Virus record (IMG/VR): IMGVR_UViG_3300006155_000002
Direction: 5' to 3' (one strand)
Source: a virus
Taxonomy: Duplodnaviria > Caudoviricetes
DNA: 64,000 bases
Both the position numbers and the translations under genes were made by a program. This document shows positions 43,890 to 59,861 of this stretch, piece after piece (position 1 is the first letter of the stretch; each line of letters begins with the position of its first letter). The notes below the pieces were generated by a model. That model did no database searches. It had not been told where the DNA came from and was given only the letters and a program-made list of their open reading frames with translations.

Positions 43890-44294
43890 ATGAGCGAAAC
43901 AACGAACTATAAGCTCCATCTGACCGATGACAGTAGCGAACGGTTTCAGGATTGGCGCAACGCAATGAACGGGCCGGATAATTCCAACATGGTCAAAATT
44001 GATGAGATACTTTGGAGCAAAGCGGATAATAGTATATACGTGTCATGTACTTTGCTGGCTTCCGCGTGGTCTGGTGTTGACGCTCCATATATCCAGTCAT
44101 TGTATGTTGATGGACTCGGCCAGTCGCAGAACGGAACAATCAGCATCGCGCAAAATGCTACATTTGAGCAACGCGAAATGGCTCGTGACGCGAAACTCGC
44201 AGTTACTGGTCAGGCTGATGGGGAGCTTATTATTTCAGCAGACGGCGAAATGCCTGATATCGACATTCCCGTCTACATTATTCTTTTAGGATGA
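43890..44294 (+). CDS. Tail fibre-associated protein
   Basis: ETTNYKL N-terminus; TLLASAW...QNG...PDIDIPV domain. Confidence 0.55.
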   Translation: MSETTNYKLHLTDDSSERFQDWRNAMNGPDNSNMVKIDEILWSKADNSIYVSCTLLASAWSGVDAPYIQSLYVDGLGQSQNGTISIAQNATFEQREMARDAKLAVTGQADGELIISADGEMPDIDIPVYIILLG

Positions 44295-44353
44295 TCTACA
44301 TGAAACGACCGCCTTTAGAGGGCGGTCATTTGTATATATAAGGGAGGTTTTAT

Positions 44354-46621
44354 ATGCCTATTATCTCTAATTTTCCATCTGGCGGTGGAAGCGGCAGCAG
44401 TGGTCTGGCATTGGGTCCTGTAAAGAACATTCAGACACTCACAGCAGCCGGAAAGATCTATGTGAAATGGACAGACCCGGATGACCTGGTAGTTGCCGGC
44501 GCTACACTGGCAGCATGGGCTGGTACTTTGCTGGTGCGTAAGGCCGGCAGCGCCCCAATGAGCCGCCGTGACGGTACAGTGGTTCTGGACAGCAAGACCC
44601 GTCATGCCTACGAAAACGAGTATTTCTGTGATAGTGGCCTGACTAATGGTGTGACCTATTACTACAAATTCTTTCCCTACACCACGGCCAATTCCTATAC
44701 GGACAGCGAAGACAACGAGTTCAGCGCTATTCCTGGTACTGTGAGCCTTGGGGATGTAAGCAACATCAGCACTGCAGCGGCTGGTAATGGAAAGCTCAAT
44801 GTGAAATGGACTGATCCTGCATCCACTGTCGTAACAGACGGTATCACTGTTGCTACATGGGCAAATACGACCATTGTGGTAAAGACTGGATCATATGCTA
44901 CCAATCCTGATGACAGCAGCGACGCTGTTGCCTATCGTAAGGTGGTGACTACTCGCAATCAATATGCGAGCACTCCGCTGACTATTACAGGACTGAGAAA
45001 TGGTGTGACATACTACATCTCTTTCTTCCCGACTTCTACGGATGGCGCATCAACTATCAATTCGAATAATCGGACAACTGGTGTTCCAAATCGTCTGACA
45101 ATCACAACCGCGCCTACTCAAAGCAACACTCTTACCTACAATAAAGCGGCACAGAATCCGACTTGGTCTAACTACGATACAGCAAAAATGACCATTGGCG
45201 GTGAGACTGTTGGCACAAATGCTGGAACGTATACAGCTACATTCACTCCGACCGATGACTATGTTTGGTCTGGTGATACGGAGCCGAAGGCCAAGAACGT
45301 ATCCTGGACCATCGGGAAAGCTACTGGCACTCTGACGCTTACCCCTGCATCCATCGTACTGGATAAAACCACGACGAGTGCCACTTTTACCATCTCTGGT
45401 GACTTCGATGGTTCTTATACTGTCGTGTCACAAAATACAAGCATTGCAACTGTGGCGCTGGTAAGTGGTAAGACATATCGTGTCAGCAGCGTAAACAGCA
45501 CCACAGGCAGCACCACTATCAAGGTGACCTGTTCTGGCGGCAGCAATTATTCTGTGCCCTCCGAGAAGTCTGTAAGTGTGACAGCTAAGTTCGTTACAAT
45601 CTATGGCGCTTCTTGGGATGGATCAAGCACCACTAAGTGGTCTCGTACCGACGCATCTGCAAGCTTTACAGATCCTGTACCTGCTGTAAGCAATGGAACA
45701 GGCAGTTCTCCGTTTGACAATTTGGCGCCGTGGTCCGAGATGAAGCGCACGTCAGATTCTGTTGGTGGCGAGCTTGTTTCTATTCCAAAGTTCTACTACA
45801 AGTGGACGAAGAGCGGAAACTCGTTGAAGCTCCAGCTTGCAGATGGACAGACGGATGGCTTCAATGTGTCTCCGGCACACGCAGACAGAGGAGATGGAAG
45901 GGGTGAGCGAGATGTAGTTTATGTTGGAAGGTATCATTGTGCAAGCGGGTATAAGTCTACTACTGGCGTTGCACAGCAAGTTAGTATCACACGTTCTGCA
46001 GCGCGGACAGGTATTCACAATTTGGGTACAACCTTTTGGCAGTTCGACTATGCTATGCGTGTAACCATTCAGATGCTTTATCTGGTGGAGTTTGCTGATT
46101 GGGATTCGCAAACAAAGATCGGCTATGGCTGTTCTTCTGGTGGTTCAAAGCTCAACAACGGACAGACTGATGCGATGCAGTATCATACTGGTACAACAGC
46201 AGCAAATCGTACCACTTATGGTTTTACGCAGTATCGCTACATTGAAGGTCTGTGGGACAACGTGTACGACTGGATGGATGGTTGCTATTACAATAGCAGC
46301 GGCATGAACATTATCATGAATCCCAACAATTTCTCGGATTCTGCCAATGGCACCCTGATTGGTAAGCCGTCCAATGGCTGGCCATCCGCTATTGCTGTGG
46401 CTACCGCAAGCGGTCTTGAGTGGGCAATCTACCCGACAGCAGCGAGTGGCTCTGCTACAACCTACGTCGCGGATAGCTGGAACTATAACGCTTCCAGCCC
46501 GTGCCTGTTCTGTGGTGGCTACTACAACCAGTACACCTACTACGGGTTGTTCTACGTGAACTACAGCGGCACGAGCAACACGATCGCGGTCATCGGCTGC
46601 CGCCTCCAAAAACTCCCCTAA
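44354..46621 (+). CDS. DGR target: receptor-binding protein with FN3/Ig-like repeats and C-terminal CLec-fold VR
   Basis: Two VKWTDP...GLxNGVTYY repeats; IEGLWDNVYDWMDG; ends IGCRLQKLP; 3' end matches TR. Confidence 0.9.
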   Translation: MPIISNFPSGGGSGSSGLALGPVKNIQTLTAAGKIYVKWTDPDDLVVAGATLAAWAGTLLVRKAGSAPMSRRDGTVVLDSKTRHAYENEYFCDSGLTNGVTYYYKFFPYTTANSYTDSEDNEFSAIPGTVSLGDVSNISTAAAGNGKLNVKWTDPASTVVTDGITVATWANTTIVVKTGSYATNPDDSSDAVAYRKVVTTRNQYASTPLTITGLRNGVTYYISFFPTSTDGASTINSNNRTTGVPNRLTITTAPTQSNTLTYNKAAQNPTWSNYDTAKMTIGGETVGTNAGTYTATFTPTDDYVWSGDTEPKAKNVSWTIGKATGTLTLTPASIVLDKTTTSATFTISGDFDGSYTVVSQNTSIATVALVSGKTYRVSSVNSTTGSTTIKVTCSGGSNYSVPSEKSVSVTAKFVTIYGASWDGSSTTKWSRTDASASFTDPVPAVSNGTGSSPFDNLAPWSEMKRTSDSVGGELVSIPKFYYKWTKSGNSLKLQLADGQTDGFNVSPAHADRGDGRGERDVVYVGRYHCASGYKSTTGVAQQVSITRSAARTGIHNLGTTFWQFDYAMRVTIQMLYLVEFADWDSQTKIGYGCSSGGSKLNNGQTDAMQYHTGTTAANRTTYGFTQYRYIEGLWDNVYDWMDGCYYNSSGMNIIMNPNNFSDSANGTLIGKPSNGWPSAIAVATASGLEWAIYPTAASGSATTYVADSWNYNASSPCLFCGGYYNQYTYYGLFYVNYSGTSNTIAVIGCRLQKLP
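46465..46607 (+). repeat. DGR variable repeat (VR) with IMH
   Basis: Ungapped 143-nt alignment to 46807-46949, 25 mismatches. Confidence 0.92.
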
Positions 46622-46631
46622 GAGAGGGGTT

Positions 46632-46655
46632 TGGGGAGAACCGCAGTTCTCCCCA
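46632..46655 (+). promoter_or_regulatory. DGR target-recognition hairpin
   Basis: TGGGGAGAAC-CGCA-GTTCTCCCCA, perfect 10-bp stem just after the VR stop codon. Confidence 0.8.
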
Positions 46656-46681
46656 TCCAGTAGCCAAGTAAACAATGTAAA

Positions 46682-46707
46682 AGGGGACGTGCGCAAGTAC
46701 GTCCCCT
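46682..46707 (+). other. GNRA-capped hairpin between VR and TR
   Basis: AGGGGACGTGC-GCAA-GTACGTCCCCT. Confidence 0.6.
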
Positions 46708-46806
46708 AAATCGAATCATTCCTATTTTTAGTAAAGCAAACAAGAAGCGCATTTTATGTGCGCTACGGGATTGCCTACGCAGCAGTCGCTGGTTCATTTA
46801 TTGTGC

Positions 46807-46949
46807 CGTCGCGGATAACTGGAACTATAACGCTTCCAACCCGTGCCTGCACTGTGGGGGTAACTACAACCAGAACCAGAACCACGGGTTGTTCTACGTG
46901 AACTACAACAGTGCGTCGAACACGAACTCGAACATCGGCTGCCGCATCC
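46807..46949 (+). repeat. DGR template repeat (TR)
   Basis: AAC-rich intergenic copy of VR upstream of the RT. Confidence 0.92.
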
Positions 46950-47189
46950 TTGTTTTTCGCTGGGCCTCACCAGAGGTTCCGGGCGAGTGCGTGGTTAGCA
47001 TTATTTTTGGTAGATCGGGCTCCTCACCCTTTCTATAAGGGCTGTGGTGCGTATTTCGCACTACACCCTTGGCGCGGGCAATCGCGTGCCCCTTGGCAAA
47101 GATTAACCGATAGGACATGGGTTAGTACCCTCTGAGAAACCGGAGCGTGGGAAAGCTCATGAGGTTACAAGGAGGTACTGTAACAACCT

Positions 47190-48305
47190 ATGAAACGTAC
47201 AAAAAATCTATACGAGAAACTCATTTCACACGACAACCTGATGCTTGCCCTCGTGGAGGTAAACACGAGTCACAGGTGGCTGCCGAAACACAGGCCAAAC
47301 AAAACGGTCGCATGGATTGAACAGGATATGGAGGCGCGTGTAGAGGATCTGCGCCATATCATCGAGCAGATCGTATATCATAAGCGCCAGCTCTCCAAGC
47401 CGAAGCAGAAGCAGCGGTATGATAAGAGCGCCGGAAAATGGCGTATCATCAACGAACCAAAGCTGTGGCCGGATCAATATATACACCATGCGCTTGTGCA
47501 GGTTCTCCAACCAACCATGATGCGTGGAATGGACAGGCATTGCTGTGGTAGTATCCGCAATCGTGGCATTCACTACGGAAAGAAGAAAATTGAGAAGTGG
47601 ATGGACACGGATGTTAGAGGGACCAAATACTGCGAAGAACTCGACATCCATCATTTCTACGACAGCATTGATCCAGGGTTCATTTTGATACGGTTGCGCC
47701 ACCTCATCAAAGATTGGCGCGTATTGAAGGTATGCGAGGAAGTCCTACGGTACGGCGTACTGATTGGCCTATACACCTCGCAGTGGTTCGCAAATACGCT
47801 TCTACAGCCACTCGACCAGCTCATCAGAGACAGCGGATTCTGCACCCACTATCTCAGATACATGGACAATTTCACAATCTTTGGAAGTAACAAAAGGAAA
47901 CTGCACAGGCTGAGAAAGCTAATTGAAGAATGGCTTGCGGGAGTCAATCTCTCTTTGAAAGACAACTGGCAGGTGTTCCCCACAAGGAGCCGTATGCCAT
48001 GCGCACTCGGCTACAGGTTCGGCAGAAGGTTCACATTGCTCAAGAAGCGCAATCTGTTCCGTCTAAAACGGAAGCTGAACGAGTATTACCGCCGCAAAAG
48101 GCAGCACAGAAAAATATCCGCCAGAATGGCGACTGGGCTGATTTCAAGATTGGGTCAGCTCAAACATTGCAACAATAAAAACATCTATGAAAAAATCTAT
48201 CACGGCAAGGTTCAAAAGGAACTGAAACAAGTGATTCGAAATCATATGCGAGAGGAGAGATTAACGTGGAGTATGTATTTGGAGCAAATGGCTACAGCGG
48301 CGTAG
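47190..48305 (+). CDS. DGR-class reverse transcriptase with YMDN motif
   Basis: LDIHHFYDSI, GVLIGLYTSQWFAN (DGR SQ motif), RYMDNF, ALGY. Confidence 0.92.
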   Translation: MKRTKNLYEKLISHDNLMLALVEVNTSHRWLPKHRPNKTVAWIEQDMEARVEDLRHIIEQIVYHKRQLSKPKQKQRYDKSAGKWRIINEPKLWPDQYIHHALVQVLQPTMMRGMDRHCCGSIRNRGIHYGKKKIEKWMDTDVRGTKYCEELDIHHFYDSIDPGFILIRLRHLIKDWRVLKVCEEVLRYGVLIGLYTSQWFANTLLQPLDQLIRDSGFCTHYLRYMDNFTIFGSNKRKLHRLRKLIEEWLAGVNLSLKDNWQVFPTRSRMPCALGYRFGRRFTLLKKRNLFRLKRKLNEYYRRKRQHRKISARMATGLISRLGQLKHCNNKNIYEKIYHGKVQKELKQVIRNHMREERLTWSMYLEQMATAA

Positions 48306-48550
48306 AAACTCTCCGTACCAAAGGGAGCGAGCACACCGATTTTGAGGGGTTCGCGGAGGTGGTACAGGAATACGATGACAGCACCATCACAGACACCTTC
48401 CACGTCATCCAGAAGACAAAATTCGATGAGGATGCGGAAGGCAACTGCTATGATTGGTATGAAATCGACCATCACAACCGCATCGTTGATAAGACGAAGC
48501 GCATGAAAGCGAATATGGCTGTGCTGGTCGCATCCATTTTGGAGGGCTAA
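48266..48550 (+). CDS. Small hypothetical protein (possible fibre chaperone)
   Basis: GAGGAG RBS, GTG start overlapping the RT end. Confidence 0.65.
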   Translation: MEYVFGANGYSGVETLRTKGSEHTDFEGFAEVVQEYDDSTITDTFHVIQKTKFDEDAEGNCYDWYEIDHHNRIVDKTKRMKANMAVLVASILEG

Positions 48551-48553
48551 GAT

Positions 48554-49147
48554 ATGGACAAACAGTATATTTCACAGCTTTATCACGATGGCGGACTGAC
48601 CAATATGGGTGTGCTCCAGGCTATTACTATGGGCTGGATCACCACAGAGGACGCCGTTGATATCCTCGGTTTAGATAATTCTCTCAGCGTTGTCCGGTCT
48701 GCAAAGCTGCTGGAAATCTCCAAAGCCTGCAATACGGTGATTGTATCCGGTGTTGACGTTCAGATCGGCGACCGTACAGATCACTTCAATCTGGCACTGG
48801 AAGACCAGAGCAATATCAACAACCTGTTCCGCGTGGTAGAGTTGGGCGGCACCGCATTCCCCTATCAGGCGGATGATGGAACCTGTACGGTCTACTCCGC
48901 TATGGAGATTGCACAAATCTACATTGCCGCACAAACCCTTATCACAACACAGACTTCATACCACAACGCGCTGAAAGCATACGTCCTGTCTCTTAAAGAT
49001 GAGGATACTATCTCCGCTGTGGTATACGGAATGGATCTGCCGGAGCCCTATGCTTCTGAACTGACCGGTAAGCTGACCGTAGCACAGGAGCAGATGGCGG
49101 CAATCGTTGGGAGGTTGAGCGCAAATGCGGCTTCCGCAACTGATTGA
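48554..49147 (+). CDS. XkdX-like N-terminus fused to DUF4376-like domain
   Basis: AITMGWITTEDA; HFNLALEDQSNI...YQADDGTC. Confidence 0.6.
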   Translation: MDKQYISQLYHDGGLTNMGVLQAITMGWITTEDAVDILGLDNSLSVVRSAKLLEISKACNTVIVSGVDVQIGDRTDHFNLALEDQSNINNLFRVVELGGTAFPYQADDGTCTVYSAMEIAQIYIAAQTLITTQTSYHNALKAYVLSLKDEDTISAVVYGMDLPEPYASELTGKLTVAQEQMAAIVGRLSANAASATD

Positions 49148-55830: not shown

Positions 55831-56354
55831 CACTTTGCTCCTGTACTGCCGATGCCTCCATTTCTGACGGCAACAGCATTGTCGTTGTATGTGATACCGT
55901 ATGGGATGAAAATAGCCTGCATAAAGCCATCGCCAGCATCGATGCAGATATCTTTTCCTTCATTGGTATCGTTGGTGATCTTGGCAAAGATATGACCTTC
56001 ATTATCAGAGCCGTAATAGTCTTCATCGATCACGCCGATGGTGTTGTTAAGCTGCATCCGGTACTTGAACCCAAGACCACTACGCGGAACACACGCCAGC
56101 CACCATCCAGGCTCAATCTTTACCCGGATGCCAGTCGGAATTTTGATAGTATCACCTGGGTGCAGAGTAAAAGAGAAGGGGGCTCTGAAGTCATACCCTG
56201 CAGACCCTGACGTTGCCCGTGTCGGAAGTTTGATCTGCTCGTATAAGTCATGAACATACGCTTTATAAAATTCCCACTCATTTGCAATCGGCATATCCTT
56301 CATGGATTCAAGGAACTGTTCGAAGCTGACTTTTTCAAATTTTCCTACTTGCAT
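55830..56354 (-). CDS. dut: Trimeric dUTPase
   Basis: SAGYD, PRSGLG, GVIDEDYYG, RNGGIGSTG. Confidence 0.95.
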   Translation of the reverse strand: MQVGKFEKVSFEQFLESMKDMPIANEWEFYKAYVHDLYEQIKLPTRATSGSAGYDFRAPFSFTLHPGDTIKIPTGIRVKIEPGWWLACVPRSGLGFKYRMQLNNTIGVIDEDYYGSDNEGHIFAKITNDTNEGKDICIDAGDGFMQAIFIPYGITYNDNAVAVRNGGIGSTGAK

Positions 56355-56363
56355 AGTTTCTCC

Positions 56364-56861
56364 TTAATTCCGTGTACGTTTCCAGTAGTTCTTCATCTTG
56401 TATGAAGGATCATTTGTGACGTCCATTTTGCAGATACTCGGCGGTACAAAGTTATTTGCATCCTCTACGCTTTGGAATTCTACTTCTGCGTACATAAACT
56501 CTGTATCAGTGCCTTTGTCTACATGTGAGCATTCCAATATAAGGCCATCGATGTCATATATACTAAAATCCTTTTTGACAAATGGGTGTTCGACCATATC
56601 AGCCAGTGCGTAGAAGTATTCTTTTGAAATAGGAATCTCGACTTCACGGCGAATAAGTTCACCGTTCGATTTGATAGCGATGTAATATGAGACGTCTATT
56701 CCTTCAACAACATTCCTTCGAATTCTTACCTCTGGATCAATAGACAGATATGCTTGATAGACTTCTTTCCTCTCCAACATTGGCAAGGAAGTTGGTAATC
56801 TATCAATTAAGAACTTGCGTTCAATTTCTGTGAATTGGTTTTCCAACAAATCACTCCTCAT
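56364..56861 (-). CDS. CYTH-domain protein
   Basis: EIERKFL, EVRIR, AEVEF. Confidence 0.85.
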   Translation of the reverse strand: MRSDLLENQFTEIERKFLIDRLPTSLPMLERKEVYQAYLSIDPEVRIRRNVVEGIDVSYYIAIKSNGELIRREVEIPISKEYFYALADMVEHPFVKKDFSIYDIDGLILECSHVDKGTDTEFMYAEVEFQSVEDANNFVPPSICKMDVTNDPSYKMKNYWKRTRN

Positions 56862-57189
56862 ATCTAAATTCTGTGTGAGCTACAACAGAGTACAAGATGT
56901 CTGAGGAGATGTCTTTGTCATACAAAACAAAGTTGAACTTGTGTCCTCTTGCACTGTCTCCGGCGGATAAAAACCTGATGCTGCTTCCATTTTTGAAAGT
57001 TACATATCTGTCTTGTACTTTGGAAATGGCATCCTTTTCTTCTTCGTCTAAACATATCTCATTTACAAAGTCCATATAAACGCACTTTGCATCATGGATA
57101 AGTTTTGTAAAGACACCGACTCTGAATCCTGGTAGCTGCACACATTTTCTGATGGCTTTCAGTTCTTCAAGGTAGTCAAGCTGTACCAT
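56851..57189 (-). CDS. Small protein resembling a TerL ATPase fragment
   Basis: FKNGSSIRFLSAGDSARGHKFNFVLYD versus TerL FKNGSYIKVVTAADSSRGNRATVLILD. Confidence 0.6.
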   Translation of the reverse strand: MVQLDYLEELKAIRKCVQLPGFRVGVFTKLIHDAKCVYMDFVNEICLDEEEKDAISKVQDRYVTFKNGSSIRFLSAGDSARGHKFNFVLYDKDISSDILYSVVAHTEFRYEE

Positions 57190-57190
57190 A

Positions 57191-57430
57191 TCACTTGCGC
57201 CTAAAGATGTTGCTAATTACAGCAGCGCACACACCAATAACCGTAACAGCCAGCGTTGTAACAGCCATTACTACGCAAGGACCATCGACAAGCTCTACCT
57301 CACCTGTGAGAAGCTCTCCATCTTCACATTCACCACACGGAACTCCCTCTGTAGTTTCAGTGATTACCTTTCGATCCATCTTACCAGTTACTTCATTGTA
57401 GAAATACTGGATTTCAGTCTTCGTTTTCAT
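57191..57430 (-). CDS. Small protein with C-terminal TM helix
   Basis: GGAGG RBS; hydrophobic C-terminus. Confidence 0.65.
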   Translation of the reverse strand: MKTKTEIQYFYNEVTGKMDRKVITETTEGVPCGECEDGELLTGEVELVDGPCVVMAVTTLAVTVIGVCAAVISNIFRRK

Positions 57431-57439
57431 ATTGGCCTC

Positions 57440-57625
57440 CTATTCTGCACACTTGATATAAAGCCCGCAATGACAGGCGCCCTCTGTCATTTCTCGGAAT
57501 TCTTTACACATACATTTTGTATCTGCATTTTTTACCAGAGCACATGGGCAGTATCCATTGTTGGCTTTTAGCTGCTGTCTGATTTCATACACAAATTCTG
57601 TGTCAGGGTTCGTTGTGATTCTCAT
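57440..57625 (-). CDS. Ferredoxin:thioredoxin reductase catalytic-subunit-like protein
   Basis: CPC...CMC...CHC motifs. Confidence 0.8.
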   Translation of the reverse strand: MRITTNPDTEFVYEIRQQLKANNGYCPCALVKNADTKCMCKEFREMTEGACHCGLYIKCAE

Positions 57626-58110
57626 TATGAAATCCTCTCTGCATATTGATTATCACTTGCGAGGGTAACGCCAAGAACATCATCAAACCGGCTTGTACTA
57701 TTCGGTACGAATCGTCCAAACTTTACAATAATGTTCTTATAAGCAGATAGTGTCTTGAGCTGCTCCTTTATCTCCTCTGGGTAATAGCCTGTATAGATTA
57801 CAACATCGTCGTTGCACCTAAAGACAAGCCGTAAATCATGAATAACTTCTTCCATCTCATTAAACTGCTCGAACGGTTCCAGACCACCAAAAATAACTGC
57901 CTCGGTAACTTTATTGGCGAGGTATCGTTCACACAGTTCACAACTGTCAATAGTGACGGGGGCGCGTGAGCGCCACCCGTCATTCTGACAGACAGATGTA
58001 GGTATTCCTGCTTCTATGCAGCATTTGCCGCCGCAGGATATTGCGCCGATGAACATTGACGGTTTCTTGTAATCATCGAACCGTTCATCAACAACAGTGA
58101 GGACTCGCAT
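57625..58110 (-). CDS. nrdG: Anaerobic RNR activase (radical SAM-like)
   Basis: CGGKC...CQN, GGLEP, YTGY, KFGRF; adjacent to nrdD. Confidence 0.85.
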   Translation of the reverse strand: MRVLTVVDERFDDYKKPSMFIGAISCGGKCCIEAGIPTSVCQNDGWRSRAPVTIDSCELCERYLANKVTEAVIFGGLEPFEQFNEMEEVIHDLRLVFRCNDDVVIYTGYYPEEIKEQLKTLSAYKNIIVKFGRFVPNSTSRFDDVLGVTLASDNQYAERIS

Positions 58111-59861
58111 CAGAGTTGAACCCTGTCTGAAAACTCGGCTTTTTTGCCGCGATTGAAGTTATCCACACAGCGCAGATACCCAGTGATGCGCTGATACTTC
58201 TTGAGCCGTTGCTTGCAGTACGGACACTTATCCACTTTTTCTGGTATATATCCATGTTCGTCGCAGTAACGAGAGATCGGGGATAGGCTCATATACGGAA
58301 CCCGATAGTTCTCACACATTGCTTTGACGATGGCTTTTGCCTGCTCGCCAGTAATAGCGCCTTCTTCCCACACATGAATGACAGTTCCGCCTGTAAACTG
58401 CGTCTGAAGATCTTCCTGGTGCTTGAAGGTGCTATCGATACCATCAATCATGCTGACAGGAATGTGACAGCTATTCGTGTAATAGCAATCAAGTCCGCTG
58501 CCCTGAGTAATGATGTCAGGGTAGATTTTCCTGTCGGCCAACGCAAACCGGTAGCATGTCGATTCGGCCGGCGTTGCCTCGTAGTTATACAGGTGGCCGG
58601 TCTCCTCCTGATAAACCAGGAGCCGTGCCCTGATGTGGTTGCCAACATCAACACAGAACTGCTTGGCTTCAGGGTCAATAATGTTCTTCCCCATGAAATT
58701 TTCACACATTTCATTCATGCCGATGACGCCGATTGTTGAGAAGTGGTTGTTGATCGTACCAACATACTCCATATATGCCGGCAGCATGTGCGCGTCGATA
58801 ACCTCTTTCTGGAGCCAGTCCCGCTTGATTTCCAGACTATCTCTGGCGATGTCGAGATACTTATCCAAAGCGGCGTAAAAGCTTGCCTGATCGCCTTTGT
58901 TCTCATATCCAAGGCGAGGAAGATTCAGTGTAACAACGCCAATAGAGCCTGTTGAGTCTCCTGCTCCAAACAGGCCGCCATTTCTATGGCGAAGCTCAGA
59001 CAGATCGAGGCGCAGGCGGCAGCACATAGACCTCACGTCTGAGATATCCAAATCGCTGTTGATAAAGTTGGCAAAATACGGAGTCCCGTACTTCCCCGCC
59101 ATCTCCCACAGCATTTCATTGTTAGGATTATCCCAATCAAAACGTTCGTGGATATTATAAGTCGGAATAGGATATGCAAACAGCTTCCCGTCTGCATCAC
59201 CATTGAGCATAATCTCAAAGAATACTCTGTTGAGCATGTCCATTTCCTGCTGGCAGGAACCATAAGTGAAGCTTTGGAGTTTGCCGCCAACGATGACATA
59301 TTCGTCCAACATATCTTTTGGTGGTGTCAGGTCAAAGGTAATGTTGGAAAAAGCAGGTTCTGCTCCAGCCCGACTGTTCGAGTTAATGCTGAAAATAAAG
59401 TTCTGCATTGACTGCTTTACTTCGTCATACCCGATTTTGTCGCTTTTGATGAACGGAGCGAGCAACGTGTCAAATCCGTTCAAAGCAACAGCTCCCATGA
59501 TTTCGTTCTGGAAAATCGTAATCAGGTTTGCAATCTGATTAAGAACAGAGTCAAAGTGCTTTGCCGGAGCAGATGTTGGCACACTTGGTACATTACGAAC
59601 GCCTTTGAGCAGGATTTCCCTCAGAGAGTATCCAACGCAATAAAGTGTCAGTCCCCCAAGATCATGGATGTGGATATGTCCATCAACATATGCTTGCGAG
59701 ATGTATTCAGGGTAGACTTCGCGGAGCCAGTAGTCCTTGCTGACCTCTGCCGTAATGTACTTGTTCATTGCTCCAAAGCTGTATGGAGCATTTGAATTTT
59801 CCTTTACTCGCCAATCCTTTTTGTCCAGATAAGATTCAACAATATTTTTACTGCTTTTCAT
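58110..59861 (-). CDS. nrdD: Class III ribonucleotide reductase, no ATP cone
   Basis: HIHDL, SMCCRL, EATPAES, C-terminal Zn site, RITGYL glycyl-radical loop. Confidence 0.95.
   Translation of the reverse strand: MKSSKNIVESYLDKKDWRVKENSNAPYSFGAMNKYITAEVSKDYWLREVYPEYISQAYVDGHIHIHDLGGLTLYCVGYSLREILLKGVRNVPSVPTSAPAKHFDSVLNQIANLITIFQNEIMGAVALNGFDTLLAPFIKSDKIGYDEVKQSMQNFIFSINSNSRAGAEPAFSNITFDLTPPKDMLDEYVIVGGKLQSFTYGSCQQEMDMLNRVFFEIMLNGDADGKLFAYPIPTYNIHERFDWDNPNNEMLWEMAGKYGTPYFANFINSDLDISDVRSMCCRLRLDLSELRHRNGGLFGAGDSTGSIGVVTLNLPRLGYENKGDQASFYAALDKYLDIARDSLEIKRDWLQKEVIDAHMLPAYMEYVGTINNHFSTIGVIGMNEMCENFMGKNIIDPEAKQFCVDVGNHIRARLLVYQEETGHLYNYEATPAESTCYRFALADRKIYPDIITQGSGLDCYYTNSCHIPVSMIDGIDSTFKHQEDLQTQFTGGTVIHVWEEGAITGEQAKAIVKAMCENYRVPYMSLSPISRYCDEHGYIPEKVDKCPYCKQRLKKYQRITGYLRCVDNFNRGKKAEFSDRVQL

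Follow-up and report, generated by a model that had tools for sequence, protein, structure and literature searches.

We examined a diversity-generating retroelement (DGR) in a 64,000-nucleotide stretch of viral DNA (Caudoviricetes; IMG/VR record IMGVR_UViG_3300006155_000002), which we refer to as the window. In this element, the variable repeat (VR) at the 3′ end of a phage tail-protein gene differs from the template repeat (TR) in front of the reverse transcriptase (RT) gene at many bases other than template adenines. We found that the element itself does not break the adenine rule. The VR and the TR are very probably non-cognate and derive from two related gut phages, and a misassembly that switched strains probably joined the target gene and VR of one phage, strain II, to the spacer, TR and RT of the other, strain I. 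The element itself qualifies as a DGR; the particular pairing of VR and TR in the window does not.

An independent repeat search of the window recovered a 143-nt direct repeat that aligns without gaps at 83% identity, with the VR at 46465-46607 and the TR, which is the strain-I allele, at 46807-46949, both on the plus strand (blastn of VR against TR inside the window, E = 1.5e-37). The pair has 25 mismatches, 13 at TR adenines and four each at TR C, G and T. DGR pairs are expected to differ (almost) only at TR adenines, and the window's own pair fails to do so (13/25 at A). The original prediction had reported 12 of 25 mismatches at non-A template bases in an ungapped 143-nt alignment, and our recount gave the same figures; all nine codon changes that it had named (TR>VR CAC>TTC, GGG>GGT, GGT>GGC, CAG>ACC, CAC>TAC, AGT>GGC, GCG>ACG, TCG>AGC and TCG>GCG) were present in our codon comparison. 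Paired instead with strain-I VRs from other contigs, the same TR behaved as a DGR template should: 14 of 15 differences fell at TR adenines with the VR of locus L037 (14 A and 1 C), and 31 of 33 with that of L223 (31 A, 1 C and 1 T).

Public runs laid on positions 44000-49000 of the window (X1, X2, X15 and X3) revealed a discontinuity between VR and TR. These runs were used as assembled Logan contigs, and all depths given here are per-contig means; strain I denotes the widespread prophage form and strain II the left-hand form, which carries the window's target gene and VR. A 1201-nt query (46200-47400) was contained in 20 runs, with a share of 0.65-0.66 in 18 of them, 0.80 in X2 and 0.97 in X1, the last two coming from one study. 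A share of 0.65-0.66 corresponds to the part of the query from 46591 on (810/1201), and the left part was present, among the 20 runs, in X1 and X2 only. Contigs that match the window's target gene and VR with zero differences were likewise confined to these two runs.

To the right of this boundary, strain-I contigs of X15 and X2 match 46591-49000 with a single difference over 2,410 nt. To the left, the target gene on strain-I contigs has 82 differences from the window in 45358-45743 and 97 in 45825-46316. This strain-I target is the L037 allele, as the mismatch counts (17, 82 and 97) match and 40/40 listed variants agree. The target gene and VR of the window are ~80% identical to strain I, and the sequence left of the switch, compared with strain-I-type contigs, shows ~75% identity as far back as 43316 at least; because the divergence extends that far to the left, a single switch is indicated rather than a replaced cassette. 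The window's target allele shows ~73-80% nucleotide identity to all relatives found (best DNA match among loci, 74.8%). No closer target gene was found in viral_contigs, where the best match reached 79% amino acid identity; the metagenome and genome collections were searched by RT only. An X3 contig matches 46463-49000 with 30 differences, and its VR therefore differs from that of the window.

Comparison of contigs placed the change of lineage in a zone at 46591-46640 (plus strand), made up of the GC-rich end of the VR, which resembles an initiation of mutagenic homing (IMH) site, and the first hairpin after it. Strain-I identity of the window begins at 46591. At position 46610 the window has A where the strain-I-type loci L037 and L223 have G, and the window follows strain II through ~46610 and strain I from ~46611. 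Two contigs of X1 end together at 46640, in the hairpin region past the VR: that of strain II and that of the strain-I target, the second of which, after an unaligned VR, has its last 48 letters on 46593-46640 (joint 46316>46593). This shared end lies at 46610+30, as would be expected if k=31 graph paths merged past the last difference.

These observations suggest how the record could have arisen. The target gene and VR would come from the rarer phage, strain II, and all that follows (spacer, TR, RT and downstream sequence) from strain I, the common prophage. The sequence conserved after the VR is common to both strains, which co-occur in the sample most like the window, and the assembler would have switched from one to the other within it. 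The window's VR would have been written by strain II's own TR, which would explain that VR. Because the VR and TR would then belong to different phages, the 12 non-A differences would be lineage differences between two TR alleles and not RT products.

Sequencing depth supported this reading. In X1, window-form target contigs have depths of 18.7 (44348-44848) and 16 (44833-46640), close to those of a diverged form of the RT and downstream region (17.9, with 157 differences/917 nt, and 21.7, with 125/719), while the strain-I target has a depth of 27.8 and the window-form RT and downstream region 30.8 and 29.2. In X2, the window-form target occurs in three pieces of depth 2.9-3.7 and the diverged RT piece has a depth of 2.9, and a 9.8-kb strain-I contig that spans target, VR, TR and RT has a depth of 16.7. 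In both samples, window-form target thus pairs with diverged RT, and window-form RT with strain-I target. As depth is thereby accounted for in two samples without the surplus that a third genome would need (at most ~3x in X1), we favor misassembly over a natural recombinant. A further X1 contig, of depth 17.6, carries indels at 46957-47055, and the X1 spacer bin has a depth of 40.3, a value whose meaning hinges on the extent of strain-shared sequence after 46640.

A natural recombinant is nevertheless the main rival. Here a foreign target gene and VR, or a foreign TR and RT, would have been gained by homologous recombination in the post-VR sequence, and the VR would not yet have been overwritten. 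Such an event would give the same discontinuity at 46591-46640, and both of its parents are found together in X1 and X2. The VR end and hairpin offer homology for it because they are conserved between the lineages, mosaic joins at DGR repeats are seen in L037 and in L086/L087, and the depths leave room for a minor third genome at ~0-3x in X1. However, the window-form target equals the diverged RT in depth, and not the window-form RT, in both X1 and X2; no contig among those listed bridges 46610 to past 46640; and the join is absent from the 18 other runs and from all collections searched. On balance we regard a natural recombinant as possible but rather unlikely. The original prediction had listed a recently swapped cassette or target among its explanations: the non-cognate pair that this implies is borne out by the meeting of two lineages at ~46610/46611, and the depths favor a chimera over a biological swap. 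Its caveat that a chimeric assembly would remove the observation is the possibility to which the depths in X1 and X2 point, with the natural recombinant as its chief competitor.

Were the join biological, the VR end and hairpin would be a recombination joint at which related gut phages swap whole receptor-binding genes, a suggestion that we make only tentatively. The resident TR and RT could then, at the next homing, overwrite a foreign VR that has 83% identity to that TR and a matching homing site, and this would provide a route for a DGR to capture and reformat a newly acquired target.

Several points weigh against a misassembly of strains I and II as set out above. The comparison rests on contigs, and no read or read pair was seen that spans or contradicts the join, and a true recombinant may be present in X1 at up to ~3x depth. 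The window may have been assembled from a sample other than that of X1. The diverged RT of X1 is not of the type found in the close relatives described below (rel-type), which has 171 differences on the same stretch and gaps downstream; it would represent a third lineage, and its assignment to strain II is presumptive. Strain II's own TR is likewise putative, and the nearest other allele, that of the rel-type, leaves 8 non-A differences. If the TR of strain II were as conserved as its relatives at nt 1-104, six central non-A differences would need another cause, for example decay of the strain II DGR.

Taken by itself, the raw count of 12/25 could also be read as relaxed specificity of an RT with a YMDN box, with C, G and T miscopied, or as the work of a second TR elsewhere in the genome acting in trans. 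We therefore considered the norm of the RT clade. A survey script took the best repeat of at least 90 nt upstream of each RT and reduced 219 related loci to 139 distinct TR/VR pairs, and its rows were kept as returned, including L215 with 44 non-A differences and L192 with 1 A and 14 non-A. Non-A differences numbered 0 in 67 pairs, 1 in 35 and 2 in 18 (≤2 in 120/139). In the Y[MI]DN-clade subset, composed of pairs with RT identity ≥44% (n = 96), 1480 differences fell at A and 95 at other bases, and the pattern of the window lies far beyond this norm. The box is Y[MI]DN in the window and in all IMG/VR relatives of at least 45% RT identity where a box was located (the pattern located none in 11/84 loci), and YxDD among IMG/VR relatives is limited to RT identity ≤38%.

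The five closest relatives have RTs of 91% amino acid identity to that of the window, and among them every difference fell at a TR adenine in L001 (22/22) and L007 (21/21). Because Y[MI]DN elements have adenine-only TR/VR pairs, relaxed specificity is not a property of the clade, and for the same reason these elements appear to be active. The original prediction had raised a broader misincorporation by this RT and proposed mismatch spectra across the YMDN clade as a check. The spectra obtained speak against it, and we rejected relaxed specificity on the clade survey together with the adenine-specific behavior of the window's own TR with strain-I VRs. Adenine specificity thus holds for a large clade of DGR RTs from gut phages that have a YxDN box, and this clade may merit a study of its own; in the open-access literature we found no paper linking YMDN with reverse transcriptase.

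A second TR in trans fared no better. Besides the pair described above, blastn found no further TR-like or VR-like copy in the 64-kb window, and none of 299 loci supplied a TR that explains the window's VR with fewer than 8 non-A differences, the lowest value being that of the rel-type TR. A pattern derived from the VR, with N at two TR-A sites, gave 0 matches in viral_contigs, and in a codon-level comparison of 127 distinct copies none fitted the window's VR. The search of related genomes for a TR that would account for this VR by A-only changes, which had been suggested as a check, accordingly ended at the same 8 non-A differences, and the idea that the VR is served by another TR in trans found no better TR in any collection searched. 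We consider an origin of the non-A differences by a relaxed RT or by a TR in trans extremely improbable.

TR alleles of relatives offer a possible source for these differences. The rel-type TR allele is common to five close relatives and has 7 differences from the window's TR, clustered at TR 105-122, while TR nt 1-104 are identical in strain I and rel-type. Each of the 12 non-A positions varies among 57 TR-like alleles of relatives, and for each there is an allele with the VR base or A (GGT GGC in L165, L091 and L292; ACC in L292; ACG in several; GCG in many). Support from this polymorphism is modest because the background is high, with 60/92 other non-A positions also polymorphic. One change, C>T at the first base of CAC (VR 46508, TR 46850, TR position 44), recurs in the VRs of the window, of L002/L003 and of L037. 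A T at this TR position is found in 21/57 of the TR-like alleles, and the recurrent change is probably an allele polymorphism rather than miscopying.

The pair could also be cognate but dormant, homing having stopped and the VR and/or TR having drifted by point mutation, as the original prediction had considered. The two synonymous Gly changes and the scattered non-A changes could be drift, and decay does occur in this lineage, since the near-identical relatives L086 and L087 have a 5′-truncated RT. Yet the window's TR, spacer and RT match, with 1 difference/2,410 nt, a form that has A-only VR products of the same TR; the flanking target is ~20% diverged, and the pair is therefore not of one lineage; and the triple change CAG>ACC and the cluster at TR 105-122 match differences between TR alleles and not drift. 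As the same TR explains strain-I VRs almost by A-only changes, dormancy is unsupported for this TR and RT, and we hold a drifting cognate pair to be very unlikely.

Related records show similar joins. In L037 (the same contig as L080 and L231), the VR has 16 A and 6 non-A differences from its own rel-type TR, and the VR-TR spacer is 99.5% identical to that of the window whereas the RT is only 81% identical. From these identities, L037 consists of a window-like (strain-I) target, VR and spacer joined to the 3′ end of a TR and an RT of rel-type, the switch point lying inside the TR. L221, from the same sample as L037, carries a rel-type target gene on a contig that ends 54 nt past the VR, and L223 carries an L037-type target on a contig that ends 78 nt past the VR. 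In this phage group, DGR repeats are evidently points at which assemblies break or switch. Assemblers, and possibly phages, switch between co-occurring strains at DGR repeats and in the conserved stretch that follows the VR, and for a TR/VR pair with many non-A differences, lineage continuity across the VR-TR interval should be checked before new RT chemistry is claimed.

The locus is otherwise an ordinary phage DGR of known kind, with a tail-protein target, a lectin-like VR domain, a hairpin, a TR, a spacer RNA and an RT, all on the plus strand. The product of the target gene (44354-46621) is a 755-aa phage tail protein whose C-terminal domain carries the VR (match to the tail-protein family phrog_5302, E = 8e-40), and the stop codon lies 14 nt beyond the VR end. 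The C-terminal domain of the target had no Pfam or PDB sequence match at E ≤ 1. We modeled the C-terminal 299 aa from a 41-sequence alignment (mean pLDDT 57.5, pTM 0.70), and the best and sole significant PDB fold match of the VR domain was 5vf4, a DGR variable protein of Thermus aquaticus (E = 5.6e-5), followed by weak matches to PvdO and then Mtd. As expected of a DGR, the VR lies at the 3′ end of its target in a predicted C-type-lectin-like fold, the model being of moderate confidence.

The VR ends in ...GGCTGCCGCCTCC and the TR in ...GGCTGCCGCATCC; the VR end is GC-rich, and one base sets it apart from the TR end. Beyond the VR there is a small hairpin and then, 25 nt past the VR, a hairpin with a 10-bp stem and a 4-nt loop (46632-46655), and the fold of 46590-46665 has an energy of -17.4 kcal/mol (z = -4.1). 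The VR thus has a GC-rich, IMH-type end that differs from the TR end and is followed by a hairpin, as is characteristic of DGR targets. In rel-type phages, three stem pairs of the larger hairpin are altered on both sides (compensatory changes). This hairpin fits the hairpin/cruciform requirement at the DGR target described for BPP-1 (PMC3240598).

The VR-TR spacer (46608-46806; 199 nt) holds no ORF. Rel-type VR-TR spacers are unlike it and have an extra 110-150 nt. This extra stretch (L001:3380-3470, L002:3340-3470) contains long G and C runs whose lengths vary among contigs, and they may reflect a genuine homopolymer tract or an artifact of assembly. The 240-nt TR-RT spacer (46950-47189) is, by contrast, conserved: it is 90% identical to that of the rel-type, compared with 81% for the RT gene, and ~100 nt at 47031-47130 are invariant. 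It holds an RT-18 RNA motif (Rfam RF03021; 47087-47174) that scores 77.6 bits against a gathering score of 41.3 (E = 6e-14) and ends 15 nt before the RT start, and is therefore both above threshold and upstream of an RT. Priming probably makes use of this spacer as the structured portion of the DGR RNA. No paper linking RT-18 with diversity-generating retroelements was found in the open-access literature.

The RT gene (47190-48305) starts 240 nt after the TR and encodes a 371-aa DGR reverse transcriptase (RVT_1, E = 2.5e-13; phrog_1423, E = 6e-68) whose box at 47850-47861 is YMDN and not YxDD. The protein contains IGLYTSQ, and the motif GxxxSQ marks DGR RTs. By its family matches and its position beside a TR, the gene is of the DGR type. 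The accessory protein Avd is usual, though not universal, in DGRs. We found no match to an Avd-family Pfam entry in 15 local ORFs (E ≤ 1) or in 110 window ORFs of 85-170 aa (E ≤ 0.001). A 94-aa acidic ORF that overlaps the RT 3′ end (48266-48550) is conserved in L086, belongs to no Pfam or PHROG family and does not resemble Avd. Integrase, endolysin and tail genes surround the DGR locus, and the phage is on this account taken to be temperate; megablast with 44354-48305 gave no match among GenBank phages.

The DGR of Bordetella phage BPP-1 (mtd-avd-TR-brt) is the prototype of phage DGRs. Like it, the locus in the window places the VR at the C terminus of a phage receptor-binding or tail protein, has its TR ahead of the RT gene, and shows adenine-specific differences in true pairs. 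Unlike it, the locus has an RT box that reads YMDN in place of YxDD and the order target-TR-RT, the RT-18 RNA motif lying in the spacer, and the searches of window ORFs gave no Avd homologue. The VR end, which is GC-rich and has a hairpin after it, is a further likeness to BPP-1, the role of the hairpin being given in PMC3240598. The Thermus aquaticus variable protein TaqVP (PDB 5vf4) shares its C-type-lectin fold with the window's VR domain according to the fold match (probability 1.00); sequence identity is 13-16%, TM is 0.38-0.52 and the pLDDT of the model is low.

In the DGRs of Thiohalocapsa PB-PSB1, a VR was assigned to the TR with which it agreed perfectly at every non-adenine site (PMC10907252). 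The same test applied here assigns strain-I VRs to the window's TR and leaves the window's VR with no cognate TR in the record. The two cases differ in that non-cognate neighbors in Thiohalocapsa PB-PSB1 were explained by trans action in one genome (PMC10907252), while those in the window would reflect two genomes in one record.

Two further pairs of relatives are of note. The metagenome contigs L086 and L087 are 97-98% identical to the window over 47380-51085/51301. Upstream of this they continue into sequence corresponding to window 56049-59065 (95.7% identity), a minus-strand anaerobic ribonucleotide reductase region; because of that continuation, their RT is cut at ~residue 64 and has no adjoining TR or VR. 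The loci L028 and L029 are sisters with 94% identity across 4.4 kb. The TR of L028 (2691-2837) has 12 differences from the TR of L029 (3692-3838), all of them at adenines of the L029 TR, and the L028 VR shows 18 A and 4 non-A differences from the L029 TR, compared with 12 A and 14 non-A from its own. The L028 TR appears to have undergone adenine mutagenesis itself, either through overwriting by mutagenised cDNA or through conversion from a VR.

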